The notes: generated by a model not told the origin, from the sequence alone. 64,000 bases of DNA from an uncultured delta proteobacterium (GCA_963842085.1 CAWJET010000001.1:2720001-2784000); one strand, 5' to 3'; shown: positions 8,448 through 55,564, counted from the stretch's first letter. Numbers and translations: made by a program.

Positions 8448-9227
8448 ATGGGCGACCTCGACGGAAAAATCGCACTGGTGACCGGCGGCACGCGCGGGCT
8501 CGGCCGCGCGATCGCGCTCCGAATGGCGCGGATGGGCGCGACGGTCGCGATGAACTATCGGCGCGACGAAGCAAGCGCGGCGAAAACGTTCGTCGAGGTC
8601 CGCGCGATCGCACCGCGCTCGATCCTCGTCAAGGCCGACCTCGAAGACGAAGCCCAAGTCCGCGCGATGGTCACGCGCGTCGCCTCTGAGCTGGGTGGCC
8701 TCGACATTTTGATCGCGAACGCGGCTGCAACCGCATTCAAGCCGCTGCTGGAGGCCAAGTCGCACAACCTCGTGCGGACCTTTGCGCTATCGGTCAATGG
8801 ATTCGTCGCTATGGTGCAGGAGGCAAATAAGGTGATGCGCGCCGGCGGGCGCGTGTTGATGATCTCCGGGATCGACTCGATTCGCAATCTCCCCGGCCAC
8901 GGCGTGCTTGGCGCCGCGAAGGCCGCGCTCGAGAGCATGGTGCGCGACTTCGCCTTCGAGCTCGGCCCGCGCGGCATCACGGTCAACGGTCTCAATGTCG
9001 GTTACATCGACACCGACTCGGCGCGCTTCTACGCGAATTATCTCGGCGACAATTACGAAGATTTTCAGCGCCGATGCGCCGAGCGCTCCGCGCTCAAGCG
9101 GCTGCCAACCCTCGACGAGATTGCAGCGGTCGCGTGCCTGATCTGCTCGCCCGCCGCCAGCTACCTGACCGCGCAAACAATCATGGTCGACGGCGGCTTC
9201 ACGCTGAGCTTCCCCGGCGCGATGTAA
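8448..9227 (+). CDS. SDR oxidoreductase (FabL-like enoyl-ACP reductase)
   Basis: TGGTRGLG, NAA, AKAALES, VDGG. Confidence 0.88.
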   Translation: MGDLDGKIALVTGGTRGLGRAIALRMARMGATVAMNYRRDEASAAKTFVEVRAIAPRSILVKADLEDEAQVRAMVTRVASELGGLDILIANAAATAFKPLLEAKSHNLVRTFALSVNGFVAMVQEANKVMRAGGRVLMISGIDSIRNLPGHGVLGAAKAALESMVRDFAFELGPRGITVNGLNVGYIDTDSARFYANYLGDNYEDFQRRCAERSALKRLPTLDEIAAVACLICSPAASYLTAQTIMVDGGFTLSFPGAM

Positions 9228-9843
9228 TTTCGTCCCACTGAATTGTTTCTCTCGCGGGAAGCGAGAAGAGTCGTGCTGACGAGCGGACCGCGAGGGATAC
9301 GACGAACACTCCCGACATCACGTAGTAGATGGGCGCGGGGTGGGTGGGGCCCTTCAGGCGGCCGAGATAGGTGAGCAGAAAAATCAGCCAGATGTAGTAG
9401 ATGCCGAACGAGTGCAGGTGCTTCCAGTTTCGGCCGAGCGTACGCACTGCCCGATCGTTCGACGTAATCGCCATGAGCGCGATCAGCAGGTAGCCAACGC
9501 CACCGAGGATTGGGACAAAGATCGGCGGCTTTATGCCGCCCTTTGCGAAGTAGGTAAGGATCGCCGCCAAATGAACGGTGTGTGCGCCGGTAAACCCGAG
9601 ACCGATACCGCGCCGCTCACGCAGCACAGCAACTGCGGTTGCGGACGGCAGTATTCGCGCCAACGGTCGAGCGAGAAACGCGCTCAAAAATAGGCAGGCA
9701 GAAAAACGCGCCGTCAACTGCGTGGCACGATGCCAGCCTTCAACTCCCGTTCCTTTGGCGAGGATGCTCGCGGCAAGGAGCAGGGCATTCGCCCAGGTCC
9801 CCGTCGCCAGGAGCAAGCCGCTGTGGCGGTGGGCAGATGCCAT
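9199..9843 (-). CDS. Ferric reductase-like (MsrQ/YedZ-type) transmembrane protein
   Basis: RRGIGL..AHTVH, AITSND, WKHLH; TAATG coupling to the upstream VOC gene. Confidence 0.75.
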   Translation of the reverse strand: MASAHRHSGLLLATGTWANALLLAASILAKGTGVEGWHRATQLTARFSACLFLSAFLARPLARILPSATAVAVLRERRGIGLGFTGAHTVHLAAILTYFAKGGIKPPIFVPILGGVGYLLIALMAITSNDRAVRTLGRNWKHLHSFGIYYIWLIFLLTYLGRLKGPTHPAPIYYVMSGVFVVSLAVRSSARLFSLPARETIQWDEITSRRGSSA

Positions 9844-10304
9844 TACCCTTTGAAAGATTGGTCGTAGCGGCGCTGCATCTCTTTCGGGCTCACCGACTCC
9901 CTGCGCGTAGCCAGAAACCATTGGTGGCCGAAGGGGTCGGCGATCATGCCGGAGCGGTCGCCGTAGAACTGATCCGCAGCGGGGCGCAGCACGGTTGCGC
10001 CCGCCGCTGCGGCCTTCTTGATGACCGCATCGACGTCGGCCACGTAAAGGTGCAGCCGCGTGGGTGAGCCGCCGATGGTCGGCGGCGCCAGCGCGCCAAA
10101 CTCGGGCGATTCGTCGTTGAGATAGATTTCGCCGTCGCCGATCTTGAGTTCCGCGTGGCCGACGTGTCCGGTGGGAGCGGTCAGGCGGAACACCTCGACC
10201 GCGTCGAAGACCCTTTTGTAGAAGGCGATCGCGCTGGCGGCGCCCTTCACCGTGATGTGCGGGGTCAGGCTCATTGGACCTTTGCGCGGCTGATTTGTCT
10301 TCAT
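9843..10304 (-). CDS. VOC/glyoxalase (PhnB-like) protein
   Basis: AIAFYKRVF, HAELKIGD, DQFYGDRSG..DPFGHQW. Confidence 0.92.
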   Translation of the reverse strand: MKTNQPRKGPMSLTPHITVKGAASAIAFYKRVFDAVEVFRLTAPTGHVGHAELKIGDGEIYLNDESPEFGALAPPTIGGSPTRLHLYVADVDAVIKKAAAAGATVLRPAADQFYGDRSGMIADPFGHQWFLATRRESVSPKEMQRRYDQSFKG

Positions 10305-10331
10305 GGCAATTGCCTTTTCCGGTTGAATTGA

Positions 10332-10352
10332 TACGATACGTACCGTAACGTA
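10332..10352. promoter_or_regulatory. Probable TetR operator TACGATACG-TAC-CGTAACGTA
   Basis: 9-bp inverted repeat with 1 mismatch between the divergent VOC and TetR genes. Confidence 0.6.
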
Positions 10353-10367
10353 ATTAATGTGTCAAGC

Positions 10368-10973
10368 ATGTCTGCCGAAACCAAATCCCACCCGCGGCGC
10401 GGACGGCCGCGCGATCCGAAAGCGCGAAAAAAGATTCTCGCGGCCGCGTCCGCGTTGCTAAACGAGGGCGGTATCGGTGCGGTGACGATGGAGGCGATTG
10501 CCGAACGCGCCGGCGTCGGCAAACCGACCATCTATCGCGAATGGCCGAACGCGCCGGCGGTCGCGATGGCCGCCTTTCTGGAATCGACCAGGCCGCTGGC
10601 TCCAGCCGCGCGCAAGGGCAGCGTACTCGACGCGCTGCGCGTTCATCTGCGGAAGGTGGCCGAAACGTTCGCGACGCGGGCGGGCCGCAACACCGCCCTG
10701 ATGATCGCGGCGGCGCAGAACGACAGCGAGCTTGCGAAGGTCTTCCGAAATCATTTCATCATGAAGAGCCGCGAAGACGGCCGGGCGCTGCTCGAACGGG
10801 CGATTGCGAGCCGGCAGTTGCGGAGCGATCTCGATATCGAAGCGGCGTTAGACCTGCTTTACGCGCCGCTCTATTTTCGTTTGCTGATCGGACACGGCCT
10901 GCTCGACGCGAACTTCACCGACGCGATCGTCGACGCCGCCCTCAACGGCCTCAAGCGCCGCCGCCGAACCTAG
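10368..10973 (+). CDS. TetR/AcrR family regulator
   Basis: RGRPR, TMEAIAERAGVGKPTIYREW. Confidence 0.92.
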   Translation: MSAETKSHPRRGRPRDPKARKKILAAASALLNEGGIGAVTMEAIAERAGVGKPTIYREWPNAPAVAMAAFLESTRPLAPAARKGSVLDALRVHLRKVAETFATRAGRNTALMIAAAQNDSELAKVFRNHFIMKSREDGRALLERAIASRQLRSDLDIEAALDLLYAPLYFRLLIGHGLLDANFTDAIVDAALNGLKRRRRT

Positions 10974-10981
10974 CTGCAGAC

Positions 10982-11018
10982 CGACGGGGCTTTACGCGGA
11001 CATTCCCCGACGCGAAGT
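10982..11018 (+). repeat. Degenerate orphan copy of the SDR 3' end (9188-9225)
   Basis: 31 of 38 aligned positions identical, one gap. Confidence 0.75.
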
Positions 11019-11065
11019 GCTTTGCGGCTATTCGTATTCCTTTCTCAGTTTCCTGAGCGCTTTGC

Positions 11066-11824
11066 CTAGCGTGCGGTCGTCGCAATCCGGATGTTGCCCC
11101 ATTTGCCGACCGCGCCCTGGCCGTGGCATGAGATGCTGCCCTTGCCCGGCACGATGTCTTTTTCGCTCATCAGGCCGAGCGCGAGCGTGCACGGTCCGAG
11201 TTTGAACGGGACGTTGGAATACTGGCGCACCTGCGTGCCGTCAACCGAGAAAGTCACGCGGTCGGCGGCGGAGTCGTAGGCGATTTCAAAATGATGGAGC
11301 TGGCCGGGCGCGGTCGCGTCGCGAATCTCCTCGAACAGGCAGAAATGGCGCGGGCCGTGCGCGGGCTCGACGAGCGGCACGCCGGGAAATGGCAGTTTGC
11401 CGTATACCGTCGCGATCGTCTTGTTGCCGACGAAGAAGTCGAGCGCGGCGCCGGTCGAGAAATCGAGCACGTTGAACGACACGAAGCCGTCGTAGAGGTC
11501 GCCGGGCGCGCCGGCGATAATCGTGGCGGCGAGGTCGATCGCAAACGTAATCGTGCCGCCGTCCGGGCATGCGAAGGTGCGCGTGCTGAAGTACATGTGC
11601 TTGGCGTTGTCGAGGAATTGGATGGTGTCGTGGCCGCGCGTGTAGGGGACGGCGGCGACGCGCAGAAACCCGTCCTGCACGATGACGACGGCGTCGGGTT
11701 CGCGATACTGCCAGAAACCGCCGTCGGGCAGCGGGAAGCCGGCAGGCATCCAGTCGCCCTCTCCGGTGACGACCGAGGCGAAGTTCGAGTATTCGGTAAT
11801 CTGCGGTACTGCGGGCTTGCTCAT
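11066..11824 (-). CDS. DUF6081-like protein
   Basis: W.YREPDA, QFLDNAKHMYFST, HGQG..GKW. Confidence 0.7.
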   Translation of the reverse strand: MSKPAVPQITEYSNFASVVTGEGDWMPAGFPLPDGGFWQYREPDAVVIVQDGFLRVAAVPYTRGHDTIQFLDNAKHMYFSTRTFACPDGGTITFAIDLAATIIAGAPGDLYDGFVSFNVLDFSTGAALDFFVGNKTIATVYGKLPFPGVPLVEPAHGPRHFCLFEEIRDATAPGQLHHFEIAYDSAADRVTFSVDGTQVRQYSNVPFKLGPCTLALGLMSEKDIVPGKGSISCHGQGAVGKWGNIRIATTAR

Positions 11825-11875
11825 GTGGGGAGAAGATACTGGATACCGAATGATGAATCACCTTCGCGGTGGGCG

Positions 11876-11894
11876 GCAAGGGGTGACCCCTTGC
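11876..11894. promoter_or_regulatory. Perfect palindrome GCAAGGGGT-G-ACCCCTTGC in a divergent intergenic region
   Basis: 9-bp inverted repeat; function unknown. Confidence 0.35.
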
Positions 11895-12068
11895 AACCCG
11901 GTGACTTTGCGAAGGATGCGGTGCTGGGCGCCTGTTAGCGCTTTTCGTTGTGGTCATTGGGTGCAGGGCTCAGCCCGCCGCCCCACCGCGCAGGTGATTG
12001 CGCGGATTTCCCGGCGGCGAAAGAATGGTTTATTGGGTCTGGGTCAAGGACAGTCGCGGAGGTTCGCA

Positions 12069-12503
12069 ATGGCGCCACAGACTAAAGATTCGGATCGCGC
12101 GCGGCAGGCCGATCAGGAAAAGCATCAGGCAAGGCATCCGCATCACGAAAATTTTCTGGCCCAAGGCGGATTGATCGCGGTCGATGTCGGCGCAGAGATT
12201 GCGCGGCTCAAGCGCGAGCCCGCGTGGGCAGGCAACGATCGGCATGGCAGCTCGCTCGTCAAAGGAGACGGGATCAACGTGGCGCTGATGATGCTGAAGA
12301 AGGGCGCCAGGCTGCAGGAGCATCACACGCGGGCGCCGATCACCGTGCAGGTAATCGAGGGGCGGATCAATTTTGTCACGAAGGGCAGGACGCAGCTGCT
12401 GACGCCGGGAATGATTGCCGCGCTGGATCGCGCAATCGAACATTCGGTCGAGGCGCTCGAGGAAAGCGCGATCGTGCTGACCGTTGGCGGCGAGCAGATG
12501 TAG
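12069..12503 (+). CDS. Cupin domain protein
   Basis: LQEHHT.APITVQVIEG...EHSVEALEES; SD GGAGG. Confidence 0.85.
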   Translation: MAPQTKDSDRARQADQEKHQARHPHHENFLAQGGLIAVDVGAEIARLKREPAWAGNDRHGSSLVKGDGINVALMMLKKGARLQEHHTRAPITVQVIEGRINFVTKGRTQLLTPGMIAALDRAIEHSVEALEESAIVLTVGGEQM

Positions 12504-12508
12504 CCGCA

Positions 12509-13285
12509 ATGGCTTTGTACGACCGGATTGGAGTGGGATACGACACCACGCGGCGGGCCGATCCGTACCTGCTGTCGCGGCTGCTCCATCATCTGCGTCC
12601 GCGCACGAGCGGCCGTTACATCGACATCGGATCGGGAACGGGGAATTACACGATCGCGATGCATCAGGCGGGCGTGCCGATACGCGGGCTCGAGCTTTCG
12701 GCGACGATGCTTGAGCGGGCGAAGGAGAAAGCCCCGGCGATCGCGTGGCACAACGGCCGTGCCGAGGCGCTCCCGTTTGGGTCGAGCAGTTTCGACGGCG
12801 CGACCTGCACCTTCGTGCATCATCACATGGCGGACCCGGTCGCGGCGTTCAAGGAGGTTCATCGCGTGCTGAAGCCGGGCGCGCGGTTCGTGATTCTCAA
12901 CGGCACGGCCGAGCAGATGCGGCATTACTGGCTGAACGAATATTTCCCTCGCATGATGGAAAAGGCGACGGCGCCGTACCGGCGATTCGTCACGATCGAC
13001 CTGCTCGAGTCGGCCGGTTTCCGAATCGAGTGCGAGGAAAAATACGACGTCACTCCCGACCTGAAGGATCTTTTTCTCTGTTGCGGGAAGCATCAGCCTG
13101 AGCGGTATCTCGACCCGCGCATCAGGAGCGGCATCTCGAGTTTCGCCGACGCTCCCGACCAGGACGAAATTGCGCGCGGAGTGCAGCGCATCGCCGATGA
13201 CATCGAGTCAGGGCGCATCAACAACGTGATCCGCAGGTTCGCCTACGACGGCGGCGATTACATGCTCACCGTCGCGGAACGCTAG
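12509..13285 (+). CDS. Class I SAM-dependent methyltransferase
   Basis: IDIGSGTGNY, AEALPF, RVLKPG. Confidence 0.9.
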   Translation: MALYDRIGVGYDTTRRADPYLLSRLLHHLRPRTSGRYIDIGSGTGNYTIAMHQAGVPIRGLELSATMLERAKEKAPAIAWHNGRAEALPFGSSSFDGATCTFVHHHMADPVAAFKEVHRVLKPGARFVILNGTAEQMRHYWLNEYFPRMMEKATAPYRRFVTIDLLESAGFRIECEEKYDVTPDLKDLFLCCGKHQPERYLDPRIRSGISSFADAPDQDEIARGVQRIADDIESGRINNVIRRFAYDGGDYMLTVAER

Positions 13286-13294
13286 CGCGAATCT

Positions 13295-14080
13295 TCACAC
13301 GCGGGCGCGCAGGGCGCCGTCGACTGCGATCGATTCGCCTGTCACGAAGCCTGCCGCGGGCGACACCAGGTAGAGCAGGGCACCGCCGAGTTCCTCGGGC
13401 TTAATGAGGCGATTGTCGGGCAGGTACTTGAGCAGGTTCTTGCTGAACTCATCGTCCTTGTTGGCCGGACTCGATTCGTCGTCGAGCCATCCGGCCTGGA
13501 TCGCGTTGACGCGGATCCCCTTGCGCGCCCATTCGAGCGCGAGCGCACGCGTCAGGTTCAACACCGCAGCCTTGGCCGCGCAGTAGAGCGCGGCGTTGGG
13601 GACGCCGCGCTCGGCGAGGATAGAAGTGACGTTGACGATGACGCCGCCGCCTTGCCGGAGCATCACGCGCGCGCCCTCCTGGCACGACATCCAGACCGTC
13701 TTGAGATTGTTCTCCATGATTCTGTCGAAGGCGGTGTCGTCGCCGGCTTCGGCCGGTCCGAAGGCGGGGGCGTCGAGCGCGTTGACGAGAATGTGCAAGC
13801 CTCCGAGCTGCTTGGCGGCCAGGTCGGCGGTGGCGGACAGATCCGCGCGCAAGGCCGCGCTCTGCACGCGAACGACGGGCTTGATGCCGGCGGCGGTCAC
13901 CAGCCTGGCGACATCCTTGAGTTGCTTGTCGGTGCCGGGCTCCTGCGACGCGAGCAGAATTTTTGCGCCGGCTTCGGCGAGCGTGACGGCCGCGGCGCGG
14001 CCGATGGCATGCTCGGCGCCGACGATCAGCGCGCTTTTGCCTTCGAGCGAGAAGTCATTCGACGGGTTGGAGGAGGCCAT
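13295..14080 (-). CDS. SDR oxidoreductase
   Basis: YCAAK catalytic motif, GIRVNAI, VDG. Confidence 0.88.
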   Translation of the reverse strand: MASSNPSNDFSLEGKSALIVGAEHAIGRAAAVTLAEAGAKILLASQEPGTDKQLKDVARLVTAAGIKPVVRVQSAALRADLSATADLAAKQLGGLHILVNALDAPAFGPAEAGDDTAFDRIMENNLKTVWMSCQEGARVMLRQGGGVIVNVTSILAERGVPNAALYCAAKAAVLNLTRALALEWARKGIRVNAIQAGWLDDESSPANKDDEFSKNLLKYLPDNRLIKPEELGGALLYLVSPAAGFVTGESIAVDGALRARV

Positions 14081-14113
14081 GTTAGCTCCGCTGTTGTCAG
14101 TTTTGACCGGCGC

Positions 14114-14908
14114 CTAGCTGGAACTCTGAGGCGATACTCCGGTCGGCGCGATGCCGCCGGCCAAGCCGCCGCCGTCGATCGCGATCAGTTCGCCGTTGAC
14201 GTGATTGGACGCGTCGGAGGCGAGGAACACGGCGAGCGGACCGAGTTCGCTGTCGTCGCCGACGCGCCCGATCGGAATAAACTTGCCGCCCTTGAAAAAC
14301 TGCATCATCTCTTCGTTGTGCGGGAAGATGCCGGGAACGATGCAGTTGGTCTGGATGTTGAACTGCGCGTAGGTCAGCGCCATCGAGCGCGTCAACTGGA
14401 TGGTGCCGCCCTTGGCGCAGGCGTACATGAAATTGTGCTTGCCGCCGCGAAGGCCGTAGCCCGACGCGACGTTGATAATCTTGCCGCGCTGTTGCTTGAC
14501 CATCTGCGGGATCACCGCGCGGCATCCGTAGAACTGGCTGCTCAAGTTGGTGTCGATGCCGCGGCGCCACTCGTCGTCGGTGATTTCCGGGAGCTGCTTG
14601 CCTCGGCTGCCGTCGCCGCCGCCGGCGTTGTTAACCAGGATGTCGATTTTGCCGAACTCCTTGAGGGTCGCCTGGGCCAGCGCGTTGACTTGCACCGAAA
14701 CGGTGACGTCGGTCGGCACGATCAGGCATTTGCGTCCGGTTTTTTTGACCGCGTCGGCGGTCTCGTCGAGCTGCGACTGGGTGCGTGCGGCGGCGACGAC
14801 ATCGGCGCCCACTTCGGCAAACTTCACTGCCATCGCGCGGCCGAGACCGCGGCCGGCGCCGGTGATGATGGCAACTTTGCCGTCGAGCTTGAGCGAATCG
14901 AGAATCAT
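14114..14908 (-). CDS. SDR oxidoreductase
   Basis: TGAGRGLG, NNAG, YACAK. Confidence 0.9.
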   Translation of the reverse strand: MILDSLKLDGKVAIITGAGRGLGRAMAVKFAEVGADVVAAARTQSQLDETADAVKKTGRKCLIVPTDVTVSVQVNALAQATLKEFGKIDILVNNAGGGDGSRGKQLPEITDDEWRRGIDTNLSSQFYGCRAVIPQMVKQQRGKIINVASGYGLRGGKHNFMYACAKGGTIQLTRSMALTYAQFNIQTNCIVPGIFPHNEEMMQFFKGGKFIPIGRVGDDSELGPLAVFLASDASNHVNGELIAIDGGGLAGGIAPTGVSPQSSS

Positions 14909-15679: not shown

Positions 15680-15700
15680 CACGGCCGGACTTGTTCGTTC

Positions 15701-15729: not shown

Positions 15730-15738
15730 TCCTCGGGG

Positions 15739-38384: not shown

Positions 38385-39401
38385 TTATCTTGCCGGCTTT
38401 ACGGCCGGTTTGCCCGCCTCCGCTTTCCGCTCGAGTGCGATCGCGCGCCGATGCTCGTCGAACGTTCTGGAAAAGACGTGAGTGCCGCCTTCGCGCGCGA
38501 CAAAATAGAGAAAATCGGTCTGCGTCGGGTATAGCGCTGCTTCGATTGATTTGAGCCCCGGATTAGCGATCGGCCCCGGCGGCAGGCCGGTAAAGTCGTA
38601 GGTGTTGAAAGCCGACGCCGTGTGGACCGCGCTCGCGGCCGGTTCCTTGCTGCCGTCGAGCTCGTACTCGGCCGTCGGATCGGATTGCAGGGGCATTCCG
38701 AGCCGCAGCCGATTGTAGAAAACACCTGCGATTAGAGGGCGCTCGCCGGCCGCTTTCGCCTCCTTCTCGACGATCGAGGCCATCGTGACCAGCCGGCGCG
38801 CGTCGAGGCCGACCGCGAACATCCGCTCTTCAACCTGCGGCGTCAGGACCTGGTAGAACCGCGCGAGCATGGCGGCGAGCACGTCGTTGGTCTTCGCGTG
38901 CGGCGAGAACCTGTAGGTCGCGGGGAACAGGTAGCCTTCCGCGCCGAGCGGCATCAGGCCAAGCGCGCGGACTATCGCGCCGTGGCGCGCGGCATCTTCG
39001 AACTGGTCCTCGCAGACCAGGCCCGTCTCGGCCAGCTTTTCTGCGATCTGATGGACGGTCAAGCCTTCGGGAATGGTGACCGTCACGACGATAAAATCAC
39101 CCCTGACCAAATGGCCCATCACGTCGGGAATCCGCTCGCCGCCGTGGAAAGCATAGTCGCCCGGCTTGATTTCGCGCGCGGTCTGGCTCATCTGGCCGTA
39201 CAATCGGAGCGCGAGTTCGCTTCGAACGACGCCGGCGTCGGCCAGCGCCCGCGCGATTTGGCGAAAGGACTCGCCCTTTTCAATCGTGAGCTCGCGCGGC
39301 GGTGAGAATCTTTCGGTAGGACTGAGCCAGAAGTACGAAAGCGCGGCGTACGAAGCGCCCAAGACGATCGCGATAACGAGAACTGTCGCCGCAAGCTTCA
39401 T
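38385..39401 (-). CDS. mltG: Endolytic transglycosylase MltG
   Basis: TIPEG, EGYLFPATY, ASIVEKE, LQSDPT, GLPPGPIANPG. Confidence 0.95.
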   Translation of the reverse strand: MKLAATVLVIAIVLGASYAALSYFWLSPTERFSPPRELTIEKGESFRQIARALADAGVVRSELALRLYGQMSQTAREIKPGDYAFHGGERIPDVMGHLVRGDFIVVTVTIPEGLTVHQIAEKLAETGLVCEDQFEDAARHGAIVRALGLMPLGAEGYLFPATYRFSPHAKTNDVLAAMLARFYQVLTPQVEERMFAVGLDARRLVTMASIVEKEAKAAGERPLIAGVFYNRLRLGMPLQSDPTAEYELDGSKEPAASAVHTASAFNTYDFTGLPPGPIANPGLKSIEAALYPTQTDFLYFVAREGGTHVFSRTFDEHRRAIALERKAEAGKPAVKPAR

Positions 39402-39437: not shown

Positions 39438-39493
39438 TTAGCAGCGGTCGCCGCGCGGAATTTTGTCCGGATCCGCCTGCATCCAGCCTTCGA
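39438..39493 (-). pseudogene. Orphan 3' fragment of ruvX (EGWMQADPDKIPRGDRC*)
   Basis: 39462-39493 matches 42179-42210 at 28 of 32 nt. Confidence 0.85.
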
Positions 39494-39527: not shown

Positions 39528-39548
39528 TTATGGCATCTAATGCCATAA
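39528..39548. promoter_or_regulatory. TA operator TTATGGCAT-CTA-ATGCCATAA
   Basis: Perfect 9-bp inverted repeat just upstream of the toxin gene. Confidence 0.7.
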
Positions 39549-39554
39549 TACCTT

Positions 39555-39846
39555 ATGCGCCGCTGATTCTTGAGACGCGAGATGTAATTGGAGGCGGGCG
39601 TTTTCTGCAGGAAGTTGGAATTTCGAGTTTCGCGCCCACTCGCGAGCTGCACGAAGGAATCCGGTACTCTCTTTGTCTCGTGGAGCTTGAGAGCGGCAAC
39701 GTGGTTTTGCTCTACGATGTTCATCGGGGTAAGTCGCATCACCGACACTTGCGCGGCAAAGAGACCGTTACAAGTTCGTCAACGAGGACACGTTGCTCGA
39801 CGATTTCTTGCGTGACGTGAATCTGCTCCTGGAGGGTAAGTTATGA
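39555..39846 (+). pseudogene. Frameshifted TumE/DUF6516-type toxin
   Basis: GIRYSL...YDVHRGKSHHRHLRG motif; tail YKFVNEDTLLDDFLRDV..GKL* in another frame, stop overlapping the antitoxin ATG; likely second shift just after ATG 39555. Confidence 0.75.
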
Positions 39847-40244
39847 GCGCACGGCGGCTTTACATCGGTATCCGCGCGAGTGCTGAGCGATCCAAAGCGC
39901 TTCGCGAAGCGATTCGGCGAGTCGCGCGCGGTGACCGCGCCTCGCAGGGGGCGGGGCTATATTTCGAAACCGTCGAGGAGCTTCGGCAGATTCTGACCGA
40001 GAAGCGGCTGGAACTGTTGCTCGCGATCACGCGCTACCGGCCGGCGTCGGTCCACGAACTCGCCGGGCTGCTCGAGCGTGACTACAAGAACGTGAGCACT
40101 GACATCACGCTGCTCGAACGGCTGGGACTGGTAAAGCTGGGCGCTAAGGGCGGCAAGGGAAGAGCGCAGACGCCGACTGTCCCGTATGACGAGATTCAGG
40201 TAACCATCGATCTGCGACAACCGCGCGCGGCACATGCCGCTTGA
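39843..40244 (+). CDS. HVO_A0114-like winged-HTH antitoxin
   Basis: LT.KRLELL..I....PASVHELAGLLERDYKNV..D...L. Confidence 0.85.
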   Translation: MSARRLYIGIRASAERSKALREAIRRVARGDRASQGAGLYFETVEELRQILTEKRLELLLAITRYRPASVHELAGLLERDYKNVSTDITLLERLGLVKLGAKGGKGRAQTPTVPYDEIQVTIDLRQPRAAHAA

Positions 40245-40251: not shown

Positions 40252-40342
40252 GCATCCCGGCGATCGCCTTGAGGTCTGTTTTGAGCGCGTGCCGCTCGAC
40301 GATTGCCGTGGATGCGCTCCCCATCGAGGCCGCGTCGGTGAC
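40252..40342 (-). pseudogene. Orphan internal 5'-proximal fragment of ruvX
   Basis: About 80% identical to 42454-42544, including an exact 23-mer CCCATCGAGGCCGCGTCGGTGAC. Confidence 0.85.
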
Positions 40343-40586
40343 TCGATCGGCGACACCCTGTTACCTTCGGAACCACCCTGATCTCGTAGGCACGCGCGGC
40401 ACGCATCGCGGCGTGGGCTGAAGATCCAATCACTACCGATTCATTTTTCTTTTGATTTCTTTAGCGGCCGGCGATGCGCTTGGCGTGGCTCTTGCGTCTT
40501 TGAATTCGCAAGAAAAAGAGTTGAATCGAGCGCTCGCGGACCGATCACGAGCGGGCGGCGCAATGCTCGCCGCCAAGAAGGCAGTC

Positions 40587-42110
40587 ATGGCGCCATCCAA
40601 AGAATCTTTCCGGCTGAGCACCCAAGACGCGTCGTTCCTCTATGGTGAGGCGGCTAATGGACCGTTGAATATGGCGATGCTTGGCACGTTCCGCAGCCAT
40701 ATCGACTTCAAGAGCCTGCGCGCGTACGTGGATGCGCGGATGCATCTGCTGCCCCGCTATCGTCAGCGGCTCGTGTTCGCGCCGCTCAACCTTGCCCATC
40801 CGAGCCTCGAAGACGACCCCGGCTTCGACCTCGCCAATCACATGTTCTGCCATGAGCTGCCGCTCGATTCGTCGGAAGCGGTGCTGATGAAGGCGGTGAT
40901 GCAGGTCTACGAAAAGCCGCTCGATCGCGGCAAGCCGTTGTGGGAACTCCACTTGTTCACCGGCCTGAGGGGTGGACACAGCGCGATCCTTACCAAGATT
41001 CATCATTGCCTTGCCGATGGGATTTCAGGAATGGAACTGCTCGCCGCGACGACGAGCACCCGCCCGGACGCTCCCGCGCCGACGCCTCCAGATGAGCCCT
41101 GGAGGGCGGCGCCGACTCCGGGGCGCGTGGAACGGGTTGCGTCTGCGCTCACCGACCTCGCGCGCTCGCGAATCGAGTTGGCGCGCCGCGCAGCCGACGC
41201 GATCACGAATTTGCGCGATTTGGACGAGCAGGCGTCCGCGCCGGCGGCGGTCGTGCAGACAATCCGGCGAATGGGTCAGCCGATCGTAGCGGCCCCGTGG
41301 AACGCCGCGACGGTGACGGCTGCGCGCACAGTGGCGTGGCTGCGATGCCCGCTTCACGACGTCGCCCGCATACGCACCACCTTCGGCGGGACCATCAACG
41401 ACGTGGTGCTGGCCATCCTGAGCGAAGGGGCCGCGCGCTACCTGGCGTTTCACGGCTGCCCCACCGAGGGGCGTCCTATCCGAATCGGATGTCCGGTGAA
41501 CGTCCGCGCGAAAGACGAATATGGGAAGCTCGGCAACCGCGTCTCGATGATGTTCCCCGAGTTCGACGCCCGGACGATGAACACCGTCGATCGACTGAAG
41601 GCGGTCATCGAGGAGACCTCGCGGATCAAGGCCGCCAAAGAGGCGCTCGCGTTCGAGAACCTGATGTCTGCGCTCGACTACGTCCCGCCGGCAGCACTCG
41701 GGCTGGCGTCGCGGCTGCTGACCTCGGCGATCGAAGTGGGAGGACGGCTCGCCGGCGCGGCGCCACGGCTGGCGCGGCGTGCGCCGATGCTCGGCACGGG
41801 CATCAGCTTCATCGCGACCAACATCCCGGGCTCGCCGGTGCCGGTCTATCTCGCGGGCCATCAGTTGGTCGATACGGTTGGCATGGTTCCGCTCACCGCG
41901 ACGCTCGGCTATGGCGTTACGATCCTGAGCTACAACCGCAACCTCTATTTGGCGCTGACGGCGGAGCCGAACCTGATGCCGGACGTGGGCTTCATGAAGT
42001 CGCGAATCAAGGAGACGCTGCGCGAGTTGATTGCGCGGGTACCGAAGGAGATCGTGCCGGCCGCGCCGTCTGCTGTGCCGGCCTCTGCCGCGATTCGCGA
42101 GGTCGCCTGA
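40587..42110 (+). CDS. Wax ester/triacylglycerol synthase (WS/DGAT) O-acyltransferase
   Basis: LS.QDASFL, PLDRGKPLWE, KIHHCLADG, TINDVVL, GNRVS, TNIPG. Confidence 0.92.
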   Translation: MAPSKESFRLSTQDASFLYGEAANGPLNMAMLGTFRSHIDFKSLRAYVDARMHLLPRYRQRLVFAPLNLAHPSLEDDPGFDLANHMFCHELPLDSSEAVLMKAVMQVYEKPLDRGKPLWELHLFTGLRGGHSAILTKIHHCLADGISGMELLAATTSTRPDAPAPTPPDEPWRAAPTPGRVERVASALTDLARSRIELARRAADAITNLRDLDEQASAPAAVVQTIRRMGQPIVAAPWNAATVTAARTVAWLRCPLHDVARIRTTFGGTINDVVLAILSEGAARYLAFHGCPTEGRPIRIGCPVNVRAKDEYGKLGNRVSMMFPEFDARTMNTVDRLKAVIEETSRIKAAKEALAFENLMSALDYVPPAALGLASRLLTSAIEVGGRLAGAAPRLARRAPMLGTGISFIATNIPGSPVPVYLAGHQLVDTVGMVPLTATLGYGVTILSYNRNLYLALTAEPNLMPDVGFMKSRIKETLRELIARVPKEIVPAAPSAVPASAAIREVA

Positions 42111-42146: not shown

Positions 42147-42181
42147 AAAGTCCCCCGCTAACTGCGAGCGTGGGGGACTTT
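42147..42181. terminator. Hairpin AAAGTCCCCC...GGGGGACTTT overlapping the ruvX stop
   Basis: 10-bp perfect stem between convergent genes. Confidence 0.55.
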
Positions 42182-42592
42182 GTCCGGATGCGCTTGCATC
42201 CATCCTTCCAGGATGACGACTGCCGCAAGGGCGTCGACGCCGCTCTTGCGCGTGCCCTTCCTCGCCGGCATATCCGCCAGACGATCGCGGGCTTCGAAGC
42301 TTGTCAGCCGCTCGTCGAATAACTCGACGGTGACGCGCAGCTCGAGCGCGAGGTGCGCGGCGAACTTGCGCGCGGAGCGGGCCGCAGGGCCTTCGCTGCC
42401 ATCCATGTTGAGCGGCAGGCCGACGACGATCATGCTCACGCGGCGGTCACCAAGCATCTCGGCGATTGCGTCGAGGTCGCGCTTGAGTGCGCGCCGTTCG
42501 ACGATTCCCAGCGGATACGCACCCATCGAGGCCGCGTCGGTGACAGCAACCCCGATTCGACGGCTGCCGAGATCAAGCGCTGCTATTGGCAT
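42158..42592 (-). CDS. ruvX: RuvX/YqgF pre-16S rRNA nuclease
   Basis: ALDLGSRRIGVA, VGLPLNMDGSEG, DERLTS, VDALAA..IL. Confidence 0.95.
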   Translation of the reverse strand: MPIAALDLGSRRIGVAVTDAASMGAYPLGIVERRALKRDLDAIAEMLGDRRVSMIVVGLPLNMDGSEGPAARSARKFAAHLALELRVTVELFDERLTSFEARDRLADMPARKGTRKSGVDALAAVVILEGWMQAHPDKVPHARS

Positions 42593-42706
42593 CCGCGTCC
42601 CTCTCCAATCGCGTCGGGTGCGCTTGATACTCACGATTCATAGATGATCTCCCTCGTCTGGCGGGACAGTAACAATTTTTATGGCCGCTGATACTATAGG
42701 TGCCGC

Positions 42707-47436: not shown

Positions 47437-47493
47437 GTCTCACCATCGTCGTGACAGATTTTCTTGAATCGGCTTAACAAGGAGAGAACTTCG

Positions 47494-48830: not shown

Positions 48831-49552
48831 TGGCTTTTTCGATCCTCAGCCGCGAGTACGACCATCACACCGAGCAGGTCCACGCCGCCGGCGGAAGCTG
48901 GGTGCGCGACTTGATGCTGGGGCTGAACGACGGATTGGTCGCGTCGTTCGCGGTCACCTCCGGCGTGGCGGGCGCATTCGTGACCGGCAACGCGGCGATG
49001 ATGGCGGGGCTGTCGGAGATGCTCGGCGGCGCGGTCGCGATGGGGCTCGCGGCATTCATCTCGGCGCGCTCGCAGATCGAATTCTACAAGAGCGAGATAG
49101 AACGCGAGCACGACGAAATCCGCCGATGGCCCGAACGCGAGCGCGAAGAGATCAGCACCATCTATCGAAAAAAAGGATTCGCGGGGCCGCTGCTGGATCA
49201 GATTGTCGCGCACATCACTTCAGATCCCCAGCGCTGGAGCAACGTCATGATGCGCGAGGAGCTGGGCTTCAACGAAGAATCGTTCGACAACCCGATCCGC
49301 TCCGCGTTTGCCGTCGGCTTGTCATATCTCACCGGCGCGGCAGTGCCGGTGTGGGCGTATATTTTCTTTGAGCCGGGCCAGGCGCTGAAAGTGTCGGCCA
49401 TCTCGACGGTCGCGGTGCTGTTCGCGGTCGGCGCGCTCAAGACGATCATCACCAGCCGTTCATGGTGGCGCAGCGGACTTGAAAGCATGTTGGTCGGAGT
49501 AGCAGCGGCGGGTGCGACTTACGCCGCGGGCCGCATGTTTGCCGCGCGCTGA
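48830..49552 (+). CDS. VIT1/CCC1 Fe/Mn transporter
   Basis: GLNDGLV, GAVAMG, MMREELG; GTG start overlapping the previous stop. Confidence 0.9.
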   Translation: MAFSILSREYDHHTEQVHAAGGSWVRDLMLGLNDGLVASFAVTSGVAGAFVTGNAAMMAGLSEMLGGAVAMGLAAFISARSQIEFYKSEIEREHDEIRRWPEREREEISTIYRKKGFAGPLLDQIVAHITSDPQRWSNVMMREELGFNEESFDNPIRSAFAVGLSYLTGAAVPVWAYIFFEPGQALKVSAISTVAVLFAVGALKTIITSRSWWRSGLESMLVGVAAAGATYAAGRMFAAR

Positions 49553-49572
49553 GTCTCCGCGCGGTGCGCGCG

Positions 49573-49878
49573 TTACGCTTCGACGAGAATGTCGTCGCCG
49601 TCGGCCTTCACCGCGTAACATCCGAGCTTGACGCTCGGGTCGTCGAGGTTCGCGCCAGTCGTGACGTCGTACTCCCATCCGTGCCACGGGCAGGTGACGG
49701 TGGTGCCGTCGAGCTCGCCCTCGGCGAGCGGGCCGCCGCGATGCTTGCAGGTGTTGTCGATCGCGTAGAATTTCCCGCCCGCGTTGAACAGCGCGATCTG
49801 TTTGCCCGCGGCTTCGACAAGTTTGGCGCTGCCCTCGGGCAGGTCAGCCACCTTTGCAACTTTGATGAAGCTTGCCAT
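49573..49878 (-). CDS. Rieske [2Fe-2S] ferredoxin
   Basis: CKH...CPWHGW. Confidence 0.92.
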   Translation of the reverse strand: MASFIKVAKVADLPEGSAKLVEAAGKQIALFNAGGKFYAIDNTCKHRGGPLAEGELDGTTVTCPWHGWEYDVTTGANLDDPSVKLGCYAVKADGDDILVEA

Positions 49879-49894
49879 CCGGATTTGCCTCCGC

Positions 49895-51091
49895 TCAGGT
49901 CGTATATTCCGCGTTGATTCGCACGTAATCGTAGCTCAGGTCGCAAGTCAGAATAGTGGCGGTTGATTTCCCCAACCGCAGATCGAGGCGCACCGCGAAT
50001 TCGCGCGCCTTCATCGCGGCCCCCGCGCCGGGCAGCGCCTCGGTCAGCAGCCGGCCGTGCGCGGCGACCTTCACTCCGCCGATCGACAGTACCAGCTTGT
50101 CGGACTCGACGTAGGCGCCCGACGAGCCCGCGGCCATCAGTATTCGGCCGACATTCGGATCGCATCCGAAGAACGCCGTCTTGACCAGCGGCGAGTTGGC
50201 GATTTGCCGGGCCGCCCGCTCAGCGTCGGCGGGAGTGCGAGCGCCGCGCACCTCGACGGTGACGAGCTTGGTAGCGCCCTCGCCGTCGCGCACGAGTTCG
50301 CGCGCGAGCGCCGCCGAGATTTCCGCGACCGCGCTATCGAACGCAGCCTGATCGCGCGCGCCGAACGCGCGATTTTCCGCGGCGCCGCTCGCCATGATTA
50401 TCACGGTGTCATTGGTCGACATGTCGCCGTCCACGGTGATCGCGTTGAAGCTCTTGGGCAGCGCGGCCTTGAGCGATTTTTTCAGGAAAGAGGGAGCGAT
50501 CATCGCGTCTGTGACCAGATACCCGAGCATCGTCGCCATCTTCGGCGAGATCATGCCGACGCCCTTCACTGCGCCGGCGAGCGTGATGGTCGAGCCTCCG
50601 GCCGTGAAAGTTGTCGAGGCGGTCTTGGCGCGCGTGTCGGTCGTCATGATCGCGTGCGCGAAGTCGGCGAGCCCGTCTTCGCGCAGCGCTCGTACGGCAT
50701 CGGCGGCGCCGCTTTTGAATTTCGCGAGGTCGTAGAGATGGCCGATCACGCCGGTCGAGGATGGCGCGACGAGTTGCGGCGCGCATCCGAGCAGTCGCGC
50801 TACGTGCGCGCATGAATCGCGCGCGAGCCGCGTTCCCGCTTCGCCGGTGAAACTGTTGGCGCATCCCGAGTTCGCGACCACCGCCTGCAAGCGGCCCGCC
50901 TTGACGCGCTCCGCCGTCACATAGACCGGTGCGGCTTTCACGCGATTGGCGCTGAACACCGCGGCTGCGGCGGCCGGGCGATCGGCTGCGATGATGCCCA
51001 GGTCCAGCGCGCCGGCCGTGGTCTTGAGGCCCGCGCTGACGCCGGCGAATCGAAATCCGCGCACGGCGGCGGGCTCGAGTGCGACTTTCAT
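49895..51091 (-). CDS. argJ: Bifunctional ornithine acetyltransferase / N-acetylglutamate synthase
   Basis: NSGCAN, IMTTD, KGVGMISPKMATML, DGEGATK, INAEYTT. Confidence 0.96.
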   Translation of the reverse strand: MKVALEPAAVRGFRFAGVSAGLKTTAGALDLGIIAADRPAAAAAVFSANRVKAAPVYVTAERVKAGRLQAVVANSGCANSFTGEAGTRLARDSCAHVARLLGCAPQLVAPSSTGVIGHLYDLAKFKSGAADAVRALREDGLADFAHAIMTTDTRAKTASTTFTAGGSTITLAGAVKGVGMISPKMATMLGYLVTDAMIAPSFLKKSLKAALPKSFNAITVDGDMSTNDTVIIMASGAAENRAFGARDQAAFDSAVAEISAALARELVRDGEGATKLVTVEVRGARTPADAERAARQIANSPLVKTAFFGCDPNVGRILMAAGSSGAYVESDKLVLSIGGVKVAAHGRLLTEALPGAGAAMKAREFAVRLDLRLGKSTATILTCDLSYDYVRINAEYTT

Positions 51092-51173
51092 CCGGCAGGA
51101 ATCCTCCGTGCGCCGAACTATACGCGGACCGAGGGTGGGTGCAAATGGAAGACTGCCGGGACCCTTCTCGGCG

Positions 51174-53855
<2,682 letters not shown>

Positions 53856-53976
53856 CTTATCTGAGCGATTTATCCGGCAAGTTTGAAGGTTGTGAGCGCG
53901 CCAAATCGATGCGGCGTACAAAGTTTAGCTGGAAATCATCTTATCGTGAAATCGGAAGATTGGAGAGAGGGGCTTG

Positions 53977-54064
53977 CTAACGTTCGATGCGGACGGCGGA
54001 TTCGACTTGCGGGCCGAGAAATCTGCGGCCGACGCGGACGAAGCGGTCCGGCGTCTCGGTGACG
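53977..54064 (-). repeat. Orphan copy of the murI 3' end (direct repeat of 54698-54785)
   Basis: 82 of 88 nt identical; 69-nt exact block 53996-54064 = 54717-54785; encodes the same last 28 aa and stop. Confidence 0.95.
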
Positions 54065-54071
54065 CGAAATA

Positions 54072-54329
54072 TCACGCGCGTTTCCGCTGCACCGCGTCTT
54101 CCAGCGCCTGCCGGATGAAGCGCTGATAGGGAACTCCTGCCCTGGCCGCGGAGGCTCTCACTGCGTCGAGCAGCAGCCGTGGCAGGCGCATGTTCACCCG
54201 CTCGCTCTTGGGCTGAAACTCGAAACGGATTGGCCGCATGCCGGACAGATCGTATTCAGTCAGGTCGGCCTTCTCGACAAACTCCTCGGCGCTTTTATCG
54301 CTTTTGAAGCGTGGCAGTTTCTTTTTCAT
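54072..54329 (-). CDS. BrnA/CopG-type antitoxin
   Basis: KLPRFKSD..AEEF...DL, VNMRLP...GVPYQRFIR. Confidence 0.88.
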   Translation of the reverse strand: MKKKLPRFKSDKSAEEFVEKADLTEYDLSGMRPIRFEFQPKSERVNMRLPRLLLDAVRASAARAGVPYQRFIRQALEDAVQRKRA

Positions 54330-54603
54330 AGTGCTCTACCTCCTTATTGTGCATGAAGCGCGCGCTGATTGGTCGCACGAGTCGCTTGCCCCGTCGCGTC
54401 CGCAGAGCGAACACGAGGAAGATCCAGCGATCGTCGTTGCTCTTGCCAATTGCCTTGAACCGTTCCTCGGACTTCGAGTGGAGAGGGTCGGGCAGCACGG
54501 CGATTGAGCCGCGGAAGACGGACTCGATCGCGGCCTGAGAGACGCCGTGCTTTTGGCACTTGGACCGGTTGCCATCGTCCCAATCAAAGCCGGCTATCTC
54601 CAT
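54295..54603 (-). CDS. BrnT family ribonuclease toxin
   Basis: GFDWDDGN..K..KHGVS, HSKSEERF.AIG, RPISAR.M. Confidence 0.92.
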   Translation of the reverse strand: MEIAGFDWDDGNRSKCQKHGVSQAAIESVFRGSIAVLPDPLHSKSEERFKAIGKSNDDRWIFLVFALRTRRGKRLVRPISARFMHNKEVEHYEKETATLQKR

Positions 54604-54697
54604 CGGAGCGCTAACCAAAAGGCGTAATTAAGTATGGACCGTTGTACAGCCATTCGTCAACCGTGAACCGTGCGTACGATTCGTCGACGATCGCTAT

Positions 54698-55564
54698 CTA
54701 GCGCTCGATCCTCACCGCGGATTCGACTTGCGGGCCGAGAAATCTGCGGCCGACGCGGACGAAGCGGTCCGGCGTCTCGGTGACGAAGAAACTCTGGCTG
54801 CCATCGCCGCCGCGCCGAGCGAGCTTGAGCGTCCGCAGCCGTTCGCGCACTTCGGCTGCGGTCGCCGTCGCCGAGTCCACGATCTTCACGCGGGGCCCAA
54901 GGATTAGCGCGAACATATCGCGCAGCAGCGGGTAGTGCGTGCATCCCAATAGTAACGTGTCGATGCCGCTCTGCTTGAGACTCTCCAGGTAGTGGGCGAC
55001 GGTCAGTTCCGCGACCGCATTGTCGGTCCATCCTTCTTCGGCCAGCGGCACCAGCAGCGGGCATGCGCGCGTGTAGATTTCGGCGCGTGCGCTGAGCCGC
55101 TGGATCGCGCGGGTGTAGGCGCCTGACGCGATCGTCGCCTCGGTGCCGATCACGCCGATCTTGCCGATGCGCGAGGCCCGGGCCGCCGCGCGTGCGCCCG
55201 GCTCGATCACACCGATAACCGGGACCATCGTGTCAGAGGCGATCGCGTCGAGCGCGACTGCGCTGGAGGTGTTGCAGGCGACCACCAGCATTTTGATTCC
55301 CTTGGCGAGCAGGAATCCGGTGTTCTCTTTCGAGTAACGGACGATGACCTCGTTGGATTTCGTGCCGTACGGCAGGCGCGCCGTGTCGCCGAGGTAGATG
55401 AAGTCTTCGTTGGGCAGGGCCGCGGTCAGCGCTTTCAGGACCGTGAGTCCGCCGATGCCCGAATCGAACACGCCGATCGGCCGGTCGATTGCCGCGCGTG
55501 CGCCGCGCAGAAGTCCGTTCGAAGCGGCGATCGAATTTGATCGAGTTTTTCTGCGCGTAGGCAT
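54698..55564 (-). CDS. murI: Glutamate racemase
   Basis: GVFDSGIGGLTV, PYG.K, VACNT, LGCTHYP. Confidence 0.97.
   Translation of the reverse strand: MPTRRKTRSNSIAASNGLLRGARAAIDRPIGVFDSGIGGLTVLKALTAALPNEDFIYLGDTARLPYGTKSNEVIVRYSKENTGFLLAKGIKMLVVACNTSSAVALDAIASDTMVPVIGVIEPGARAAARASRIGKIGVIGTEATIASGAYTRAIQRLSARAEIYTRACPLLVPLAEEGWTDNAVAELTVAHYLESLKQSGIDTLLLGCTHYPLLRDMFALILGPRVKIVDSATATAAEVRERLRTLKLARRGGDGSQSFFVTETPDRFVRVGRRFLGPQVESAVRIER

Follow-up and report, generated by a model that had tools for sequence, protein, structure and literature searches.

Orphan 3′ gene ends downstream of intact genes in a Candidatus Binatus genome: possible scars of recombination with DNA of related lineages

How can a small group of unrelated genes come to lie directly behind a gene, leave that gene intact, and be followed by a second copy of the gene's own end? 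This question is raised by a 64,000-nt stretch of the genome of an uncultured delta proteobacterium (GCA_963842085.1, CAWJET010000001.1:2720001-2784000), hereafter called the window. Three genes in the window, murI, ruvX and a short-chain dehydrogenase (SDR) gene, are each followed in the direction of transcription by cargo genes and then by an orphan copy of the gene's tail. The original prediction, made from the sequence, described these loci as recurring cassettes without an integrase that had been inserted into gene 3′ ends with the target gene restored, and the layout of intact gene, cargo and orphan tail was borne out at all three. The window corresponds to G000:C1:2720001-2784000, in which G000 is the genome, consisting of two contigs (C1 and C2; 4.93 Mb, 61% G+C). 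Since the closest public murI relatives are metagenome-assembled genomes of Candidatus Binatus or Binataceae, sequence similarity places the host in Candidatus Binatus, a genus of uncultured soil bacteria. We propose, with a probability of roughly 45%, that the orphans are scars of 3′-end displacement, in which DNA of other Binatus lineages recombined with the resident genes, and are not the product of a mobile element.

Orphan gene ends at three loci of the window

The intact murI gene (glutamate racemase; 54698-55564, minus strand; Pfam Asp_Glu_race) is followed by genes for a BrnT toxin (54295-54618, minus; Pfam BrnT_toxin, 1.4e-16) and a CopG-type BrnA antitoxin (54072-54329, minus; Pfam CopG_antitoxin, 1.2e-26). 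Behind this pair lies an orphan murI tail with a stop codon (53977-54064, minus), which matches the copy borne by the gene (54698-54785) at 82 of 88 nt; both the identity and the pair are those originally reported. The native spacer and the native neighbour secA (51174-53921, minus) follow the orphan. The first 61 nt of the two copies are identical, and all six differences (G/C, G/C, A/C, G/C, G/A and C/T) lie within the last 27 nt of the 88; they affect five codons, all synonymously, and both copies end in ESAVRIER followed by the stop. Public short-read contigs from two studies span the orphan, the cargo and the gene tail, one of them (X2 record 12) matching 53996-54746 with 0 differences and the other (X6 record 29) matching 54013-54746 with 1 difference. 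No joint jumping over the cargo, a skip of 721 nt, was found in the assembled contigs aligned there, and contigs cannot prove its absence.

Comparison with relatives shows an empty murI site in 9 of 19 loci, where the murI tail runs collinearly into the spacer before secA, and the G000 orphan and its downstream flank are collinear with these nine. One of the nine is the unpublished genome G023, which is also among the 38 glgA relatives and contributes one row to the clpA alignment described below. Relative G020 has the antitoxin and the identical joint between cargo and orphan, but most of its orphan has been lost; a rare GTGAG-type murI end is carried by both G000 and G020. In G003 a truncated toxin gene begins 2 nt past the murI stop and no orphan is found there, while G005 carries a 163-nt repeat-like insert flanked by a 50-nt duplicate of the murI tail. 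In G002 the BrnT/BrnA pair lies within the tail of leuS, where a 128-nt duplicate and a third copy of 70 nt are present; G007, G008, G017 and G010 carry the pair at other places without a duplicate. A repeat containing CATTCTGAGCGCAGCGAAGAATC is also present behind murI in relatives.

The ruvX locus is more complex. Directly behind the intact gene (ruvX, also YqgF; 42158-42634, minus; Pfam RuvX, E 1.3e-38) lies a WS/DGAT wax-ester synthase gene (40452-42110, plus; Pfam WS_DGAT_cat, E 1.3e-48), followed by a remnant of ruvX nt 91-181 (40252-40342, minus; 92 nt, 81.5% identity to 42454-42544). Next comes a toxin-antitoxin-like pair (39530-40244, plus), composed of a 96-aa open reading frame (ORF) without a Pfam match and a 133-aa winged helix-turn-helix (HTH) protein of the HVO_A0114 type, and then the orphan tail itself (39441-39491, minus), which was recognised by its nucleotide match to the ruvX end, covers ruvX nt ~427-477 and retains its own stop codon. 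The match is 27/30 at 39462-39491 and 33/40 across 39452-39491. The native downstream neighbour, mltG/YceG (38385-39401, minus; Pfam YceG, E 7e-84), directly follows ruvX in many relatives, which represent the empty site. With U for the upstream flank and TA for the toxin-antitoxin pair, the orders found in relatives are U-ruvX-mltG, U-TA-ruvX-mltG or U-TA-ruvX-WS/DGAT-mltG, and the order in G000 is U-ruvX-WS/DGAT-ruvX(91-181)-TA-ruvX(427-477)-mltG. The arrangement ruvX-WS/DGAT-mltG without an orphan was present in 5 of the 11 relatives' loci read (G001, G053, G043, G020 and G048), and the TA-like pair, at 84-87% identity, sits upstream of ruvX in relatives. The tail copy and the second remnant that had been predicted were both recovered, but they are not the remains of a tail only: the ruvX orphan is what is left of a nearly whole second ruvX copy with the TA pair inside it. 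No one-step path to the G000 arrangement was found.

At the third locus, the intact SDR gene (8448-9227, plus; Pfam adh_short_C2, E 1.9e-56), whose copied tail is 9188-9222, is followed by a three-gene cargo (9199-10973 overall). The cargo protein scan identified a glyoxalase/VOC protein (9843-10304, minus) and a TetR regulator (10359-10973, plus), and the remaining gene encodes a 240-aa membrane protein (9199-9921, minus). The VOC and TetR genes and the orphan agree with the original prediction, but the ferric-reductase likeness claimed for the membrane protein came out as sub-threshold matches to Ferric_reduct and HisKA_7TM. The decayed orphan (10982-11015, plus) adjoins a convergent DUF6081 gene (11066-11824, minus) and matches the SDR tail at 29/35 with a gap (E 6.6e-4 by local blastn in a 6.7-kb search), which on its own is a weak self-match. 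We accepted this orphan because it resembles the SDR tails of relatives more closely than the tail of the intact G000 gene does (to G012, 80% over 45 nt), with the ending GCGAAGTG in common, and because G048 carries a clear 85-nt SDR orphan at the same site. Relatives show various subsets of this cargo or other cargo at the site, with spacers of 45 to ~2000 nt.

Tail duplicates across the genome and the anatomy of the repeats

The original prediction implied that downstream duplicates of gene tails should be in excess across the genome. We ran a self-comparison of the entire genome, cut into pieces of 24 kb, predicted its genes by means of a codon-usage model and then classified the short repeats, a tail pair being defined as one copy ending ≤20 nt from a stop codon with its partner downstream, or upstream in the mirror case. 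The direct pairs that measure 25-200 nt and lie ≤10 kb apart were tail-downstream in 23 cases and tail-upstream in 5 (binomial p = 4.6e-4), whereas the inverted pairs of the same size and range were 4 and 7, respectively. Before the length restriction the direct counts were 27 and 11, with seven tandem-paralog pairs in both lists. These results confirm that downstream tail duplicates exceed chance across the genome. Gene calling spans 81% of the genome, and some of the pairs classed as intergenic may sit in uncalled genes; the scan works at the nucleotide level and under-counts decayed orphans such as that of the SDR gene.

We judged that there are approximately 17 true orphan loci in the genome, three in the window and about 14 further ones. 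The further targets encode an ABC permease, an HtrA-like protease, ClpA, an APH-family kinase, an Rrf2 regulator, a TPR protein, an FAA hydrolase, GlmS, GlgA, a second SDR, a GHMP kinase, an alkylsulfatase-like protein, UvrB, a CYTH protein and an MFS transporter. Orphan arrays are represented by the three leuS copies of G002, the two ruvX remnants and a second partial copy of the APH gene 2.7 kb downstream. The next called gene is ≤60 nt away for 12 of 17 orphans, compared with 49% of all genes, which is a weak trend. Duplicates of gene heads are fewer, with three or four that are orphan-like. The clearest of these is a perfect 54/54 duplicate at L048:1836-2419 (G000:C1:91836-92419), which takes in the stop of a gene for 136 aa together with the opening 38 nt of the gene for seryl-tRNA synthetase (SerS) and brackets a 476-nt insert that is apparently A+T-richer and in which no gene is evident.

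The check for empty sites and for other cargo in related genomes, which the original prediction had suggested, bore it out: relatives have the empty site at murI, clpA, glgA and ruvX, and other cargo behind clpA and the SDR gene. At clpA, nine genomes have the empty site, with matches that overlap by ~130 nt, and the spacers behind clpA in others range from 96 to 2642 nt. Relative G050 has HicB and a clpA orphan as in G000, its orphan starting ~12 nt later, and G010 has HicAB downstream of clpA without any match to the orphan stretch; a contiguous clpA-HicB match in the unpublished genome G018 was not used as support. The clpA stop lies 1 nt from the stop of the convergent neighbour, and several unrelated inserts in relatives start no more than ~4-7 nt from the clpA stop. 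A palindrome (CCCTCCTCC ... GGAGGAGGG TTAGGGTGGAGG) stands directly after the clpA stop in relatives. At glgA, 38 of 40 relatives have a match of the tail plus downstream sequence, with coordinates that overlap by ~50 nt in the genomes checked, and for this reason the glgA event appears to be unique to G000. The glgA cargo opens straight after the stop with a foreign tRNA-Met 3′ half ending in CCA (L039:2493-2546, G000:C1:3113493-3113546); this half has no further copy in the genome, and the cargo has no visible glgA homology. The epimerase gene of this cargo is found at many different loci in relatives and stands beside a tyrosine integrase in G013.

The anatomy of the repeats was analysed for 17 loci. 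The similarity between the copies ends at offsets of -21, -17, -12, -7, -6, -6, -2, -2, 0, 0, 0, 0, +1, +2, +4, +8 and +16 nt from the stop codon, so that in 8 of 17 loci the end is ≤2 nt from the stop and in no case more than 16 nt beyond it. Where the similarity ends early (FAA hydrolase, UvrB and clpA), the stop is still at the same place in both copies, and for the TPR and CYTH genes the stops are about one codon apart; in all five the last residues differ. The differences fall at third codon positions in 47 cases, first in 16 and second in 13 (p = 3e-7 against one third); two gapped pairs give 9 third, 4 first and 1 second, with a one-base insertion or deletion in the orphan of each. In clpA, APH, murI, Rrf2 and glmS, which score highest among the ungapped pairs once the TPR pair is left aside, every changed codon (19 of 19) is synonymous, compared with 25% expected at random. 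These features suggest that the copies are diverged functional alleles. The differences are also clustered: those of clpA and glmS lie in the second half, and those of HtrA lie at both edges of an identical centre of ~75 nt.

The boundaries of the orphans vary even at one and the same gene. The orphan starts at -88 in G000 and -50 in G005 for murI, at -128 and -70 for leuS, at -130 and about -118 (G050) for clpA, and at -85 (G048) and about -40 for the SDR gene, although deletion trimming afterwards could mimic such variable starts. In clpA, the first 72 nt of both G000 copies have states absent from every relative, and the two G050 copies are likewise alike in states of their own. The youngest pairs are nearly identical and yet end at the stop codon (glgA 47/47, APH 86/87). 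The predicted range from near-identical to decayed copies was seen, but its reading as a series of events of different ages holds less well, since the copies seem to exchange sequence and their identity is not a clean age clock.

Several pairs were dropped from the orphan list. Two belong to a multi-copy palindrome beginning GCAGGGGTGACCCC, one 19-nt pair is a chance match, the pairs at C1:813815, C1:1065677 and C1:666512 are tandem paralogs, and the second TPR pair (C2:1545218) has a core that is present four times. The pair at C2:1653-1654 kb belongs to an array of small-lipoprotein paralogs; at this place (L045:1357-2637, G000:C2:1653357-1654637) there are three tandem small paralogs with a lipoprotein-like signal, ending CIATDDPRLKEK, one of which is broken. 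The pair C1:3238288/3242447 belongs to an IS110-family element with palindromic flanks, in which the transposase (match 3241143-3241559) lies between two 51-nt palindrome-like direct repeats (G000:C1:3238288-3242497). Within the window, 61582-63905 contains two adjoining homologous genes (repeat families D1, D2 and D6; 72-83% identity, ~1175-nt spacing), which is an ordinary tandem paralog pair and not an orphan. A multi-copy palindrome with the core GCAGGGGTGACCCCTGC is found just behind stops at C2:1109786, at C1:1973064, behind glmS (C1:2655216) and at many other sites. At C2:768777-770765, a convergent alkylsulfatase-like gene and uvrB each have a short tail duplicate and their own cargo, so that the chalcone-isomerase-like and NmrA-like cargos lie back to back in one intergenic space. 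Finally, direct repeats at C1:2124675-2126895 and C2:1244396-1250042 extend 59 and 21 nt past a stop, outside the 20-nt filter; one measures 122 nt (98%) and the other 157 nt (91%), the latter being present a third time at C2:1245638.

Cargo, recombinases and the weighing of explanations

The cargo is 0.6-4.2 kb long and varied in content. Five of the ~17 cargos are of the toxin-antitoxin type, and in four of these both partners have Pfam matches (BrnT/BrnA; TumE with an HVO_A0114 protein; HicA/HicB; Gp49 with an HTH protein); the fifth is the ruvX pair of an HVO_A0114 protein and the 96-aa ORF described above. Other cargos encode an AurF-like oxygenase, a GFA-family protein, DUF4410 and PEGA lipoproteins, an epimerase, an NmrA-like protein, an amidohydrolase, a chalcone-isomerase-like protein, an HTH_36 protein and several ORFs without a family. 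Among the scanned cargo proteins there was no recombinase, transposase or reverse transcriptase. A shared motif at the orphan edges, which had been suggested as a thing to look for, was absent from the 17 aligned junctions, where the information content was ≤0.6 bit per position. Thus, with varied cargo and junctions without a common motif, the idea of cassettes as one kind of element does not hold.

The reported lack of an integrase, a transposase and terminal inverted repeats in the window was reproduced by profile scans, which gave zero matches to Phage_integrase (PF00589), Resolvase (PF00239), rve, DDE_Tnp_1 and IS110, and by an inverted-repeat check, which found no pair at the ends of any of the three window cargos. 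The genome as a whole has 14 Phage_integrase and 9 Resolvase matches and active insertion sequences, none of them within the window. Distances to the closest tyrosine or serine recombinase were measured for 19 loci; they range from 6.6 to 284 kb and exceed 45 kb for 15 of the 19. A scan of 100 kb around the 23 recombinase genes found no single-copy direct repeat that flanks one of them and lies at the tail of a protein gene; it returned two gene-tail pairs, of which one is a multi-copy repeat element and the other a repeat within a recombinase-bearing ORF's own end. We also noted a 99-kb stretch (C1:1209938-1309356) between perfect 42-nt direct repeats, the left one being the 3′ part of tRNA-Met (1209906-1209982), with matches to tyrosine recombinases (1257081, 1308617) and to serine recombinases (1259284, 1261785); it has the look of a classical integrative island. 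The genome also encodes ComEC, DprA and Ku, which makes DNA uptake and end joining possible and proves nothing. Two known types of element were rejected. For a diversity-generating retroelement, the cargo is without a reverse transcriptase and the mismatches are not adenine-specific; for a transposon or miniature inverted-repeat transposable element at the window loci, there is no transposase, there are no terminal inverted repeats and the repeat lengths vary (25-176 nt).

For 3′-end displacement, we propose the following course. An incoming fragment would bear an orthologous gene end together with the donor's trailing DNA, which may be a TA pair, a metabolic gene or a repeat element. The incoming end would pair homologously with the resident gene and become its new in-frame end, while the far end, having no partner, would form an illegitimate joint with chromosomal sequence that lies upstream of where pairing took place. 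Homology-facilitated illegitimate recombination could bring this about, as could a replicative template switch landing behind the point from which it departed. The resident end would then be kept and shifted downstream as the orphan, still joined to its native neighbour. Selection would admit only products in which the gene and its close neighbour are both intact, which may be the reason that tails are far commoner than heads: downstream joints would harm the neighbour, upstream joints would merely duplicate part of the gene, and the survivors would have an orphan. In genomes as compact as these, a simple insertion would be tolerated only within the few bases that follow a stop codon. Later, ordinary homologous recombination would spread the whole block among genomes, gene conversion would partly homogenise the copies, and deletions would shorten the orphan or remove it altogether. 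As we read the sequences of G020, G003 and G050, in which the orphan is shortened or gone, they show such subsequent deletion. Arrangements resembling the presumed donors are found in relatives, namely the orphan-less ruvX-WS/DGAT-mltG order and HicAB behind clpA in G010. TA cargo may outlast other cargo through its resistance to loss between flanking repeats, and the 5 of ~17 cargos of TA type would fit this.

A number of points weigh against this proposal. Over all 16 ungapped pairs, only 34 of 66 changed codons are synonymous, and 26 of 40 once four pairs judged paralogous or related to insertion sequences are set aside. With the gene copy under constraint and the orphan next to it in free decay, ~60% third-position differences would already be expected, and the codon statistic is therefore less telling than it looks at first; greater weight rests on the clustering of differences in tracts and on the orphan stops, which lie at orthologous positions. 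The 5′ parts of the copies are alike in a lineage-specific manner in both G000 and G050, which forces the assumption of gene conversion, and the imported 3′ tract could instead be the orphan and its downstream flank, brought in by later ordinary recombination. The homologous joint is invisible and the illegitimate joint comes without a donor sequence, so that neither is directly readable; the lack of a junction motif would agree with such joints and proves nothing. The laboratory form of such recombination usually deletes recipient DNA rather than duplicating it. The near-identity of the glgA and APH pairs needs a conspecific donor or later conversion, the SerS head duplicate has arbitrary edges as plain target duplication would give, and the glgA and SerS events look more like long target duplication or the debris of an integrative element.

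The homology-driven, integrase-free route suggested in the original prediction fits the data best, but its plain Campbell form fits poorly where, as at murI, clpA and glmS, the 5′ parts of the copies are identical and alike in lineage-specific states and the differences are confined to the 3′ parts. According to a Campbell-type explanation, which we consider rather unlikely, the gene tail and cargo of a relative were circularised (for example by a Ku-dependent route) and entered by a single RecA crossover in the tail, with conversion later. The bracketing of the cargo by direct repeats, the end of the repeat at the stop, where homology between lineages would end, and the presence of Ku agree with this; so do the repeat size of 25-176 nt, which would be expected to survive when longer repeats would pop out, and the HtrA pair with its differences at the edges around an identical centre. 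Under this explanation, however, every position is a contrast of donor and resident, which predicts an even spread of differences and a donor-type 5′ part in the orphan, whereas murI shows 61 identical nt and then six differences in 27, and the first 72 nt of clpA are G000-specific in both copies, as they are in G050 with its own states. Conversion would be needed as much as in displacement, with circularisation in addition. Long target-site duplication is still less probable in our estimate; here, capture at a staggered break or a microhomology-primed template switch would copy 25-176 nt that are identical at birth, and the differences would arise later by allelic recombination of the gene or of the orphan with its downstream flank. 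The identical glgA (47/47) and SerS (54/54) pairs with cargo lacking target homology, the lineage-specific states that the 5′ parts have in common and the presence of Ku would be explained, and the import of an orphan 3′ part with its flank would also yield synonymous differences clustered at the 3′ end. Random ends past the stop would be expected, and yet 8 of 17 ends lie within 2 nt of it, both youngest pairs included; six pairs diverge before the stop and nevertheless keep orthologous or nearly orthologous stops with different residues, and the 19 of 19 synonymous codons in the five top ungapped pairs besides TPR likewise speak against it.

Site-specific integration of small elements, or of larger islands now reduced to remnants, by an attP site that carries a replacement gene end with the recombinase acting in trans or since deleted, is unlikely, and its standing falls between that of the Campbell-type route and that of target duplication. 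The layout, the mostly synonymous differences and the repeat end at the stop are the picture known from e14 in icd (PMC6379469), the genome has its 14 tyrosine and 9 serine recombinase matches and a 99-kb tRNA-Met island with a 42-nt repeat, and the glgA cargo opens with a tRNA-Met 3′ half and contains the epimerase gene that is beside an integrase in G013. Against this stand 19 loci without a recombinase in or beside them and the lack of a single-copy protein-gene-tail repeat flanking any of the 23 recombinase genes within 100 kb; the only repeat-flanked classical island found targets tRNA-Met. The ~17 targets would each require a specificity of their own, the orphan starts vary within one gene where a fixed crossover would be expected, there is no junction motif, and a Phage_integrase scan of G013, G021, G049, G048 and G001 found no match at their mapped clpA, SDR and ruvX sites. 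A trans-acting recombinase, as the original prediction entertained, is a proposal to which nothing points. A dedicated insertion pathway that would set small cassettes exactly at resident stop codons and copy tens to more than a hundred bases of the gene end as a target signature is improbable, more so than any of the preceding explanations; it might rely on a host-encoded or trans-acting enzyme or on a replication switch tied to the end of translation. This idea is kept open by the glgA (47/47) and APH (86/87) pairs, by the 8 of 17 ends at the stop and by the glgA and SerS inserts without target homology. If true, it would be a general vehicle for TA and accessory genes without an element-encoded recombinase. 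We regard an assembly artefact, in which cargo-bearing and empty haplotypes were stitched together in a strain-mixed metagenome assembly, as very improbable. The genome is metagenome-assembled, judging by its relatives, and the aligned contigs show many strain variants; however, the contigs of two studies bridge both murI junctions with 0 or 1 difference, which contradicts an artefact at murI at least, the murI cargo-orphan joint recurs in G020, the genome of another species, the clpA insertion and orphan recur in G050, and analogous orphans are present in G002, G005 and G048.

Relation to known systems and significance

The closest parallels to 3′-end displacement come from systems in which a gene end is exchanged. 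For the C-terminal displacement of Rhs, contact-dependent inhibition (CDI) and type VI secretion system (T6SS) genes, a homologous anchor upstream and an illegitimate joining downstream have been proposed (PMC5361080, citing Jackson 2009 and Poole 2011). As in those systems, the loci described here have an intact gene, a new module and displaced older 3′ ends in the same orientation, sometimes as arrays. Unlike in those systems, the targets are housekeeping and metabolic genes (murI, ruvX, glmS, clpA, uvrB, glgA and others), the imported end codes for the same protein end where theirs brings a new toxin domain, gene and cargo are unrelated, and the pattern is genome-wide with ~17 loci in one genome. 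In E. coli, the element e14 or phage 21 gives icd a replacement 3′ end and leaves an orphan icd′ of 163 bp (PMC6379469). The imported end keeps the gene intact there too, the native end is a downstream orphan and the duplicate reaches the gene's end, but e14 is large and uses its own integrase at one fixed site, whereas here 0.6-4.2 kb without a recombinase are found with variable boundaries at many genes.

Homology-facilitated illegitimate recombination uses one homologous anchor and one illegitimate joint (PMC3240628, PMC5361080) and is described as rare (PMC5361080). The loci of this study resemble this process, known from Acinetobacter, Pseudomonas stutzeri and Streptococcus pneumoniae, in that no element-encoded enzyme is involved; unlike the products of laboratory crosses, from which it is known, the surviving products here duplicate 25-176 nt or more. 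In S. pneumoniae transformation, merodiploidy arises when one donor fragment pairs twice, which leads to duplication by unequal crossing-over (PMC3784515). Those duplications are of 100-900 kb between repeats derived from insertion sequences, whereas the present ones are of tens to hundreds of bases at gene ends. Full-text searches of the literature, with supplementary files outside the search, turned up no description of tail duplicates that lie behind housekeeping genes throughout a genome, and none of this pattern in Binatota. What sets the proposed displacement apart is that it would act on housekeeping genes, with the same protein end imported, at many sites and without an integrase.

How TA pairs and modules of one to three genes move without a transposase or integrase is an old open question. 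The orphan ends are natural footprints that mark where foreign DNA entered and keep part of the sequence as it was before the insertion. Comparing each gene tail with the 10 kb downstream gives a simple and scalable measure for any set of genomes, and as a warning for annotation, short orphan ORFs or "pseudogene fragments" behind intact genes may be displacement scars. The orphan pattern recurs across a genus of uncultured soil bacteria, and if our explanation is true, recombination with a one-sided anchor, so far known chiefly from laboratory crosses and polymorphic-toxin loci, would add measurably to natural gene gain and would act on essential genes too.

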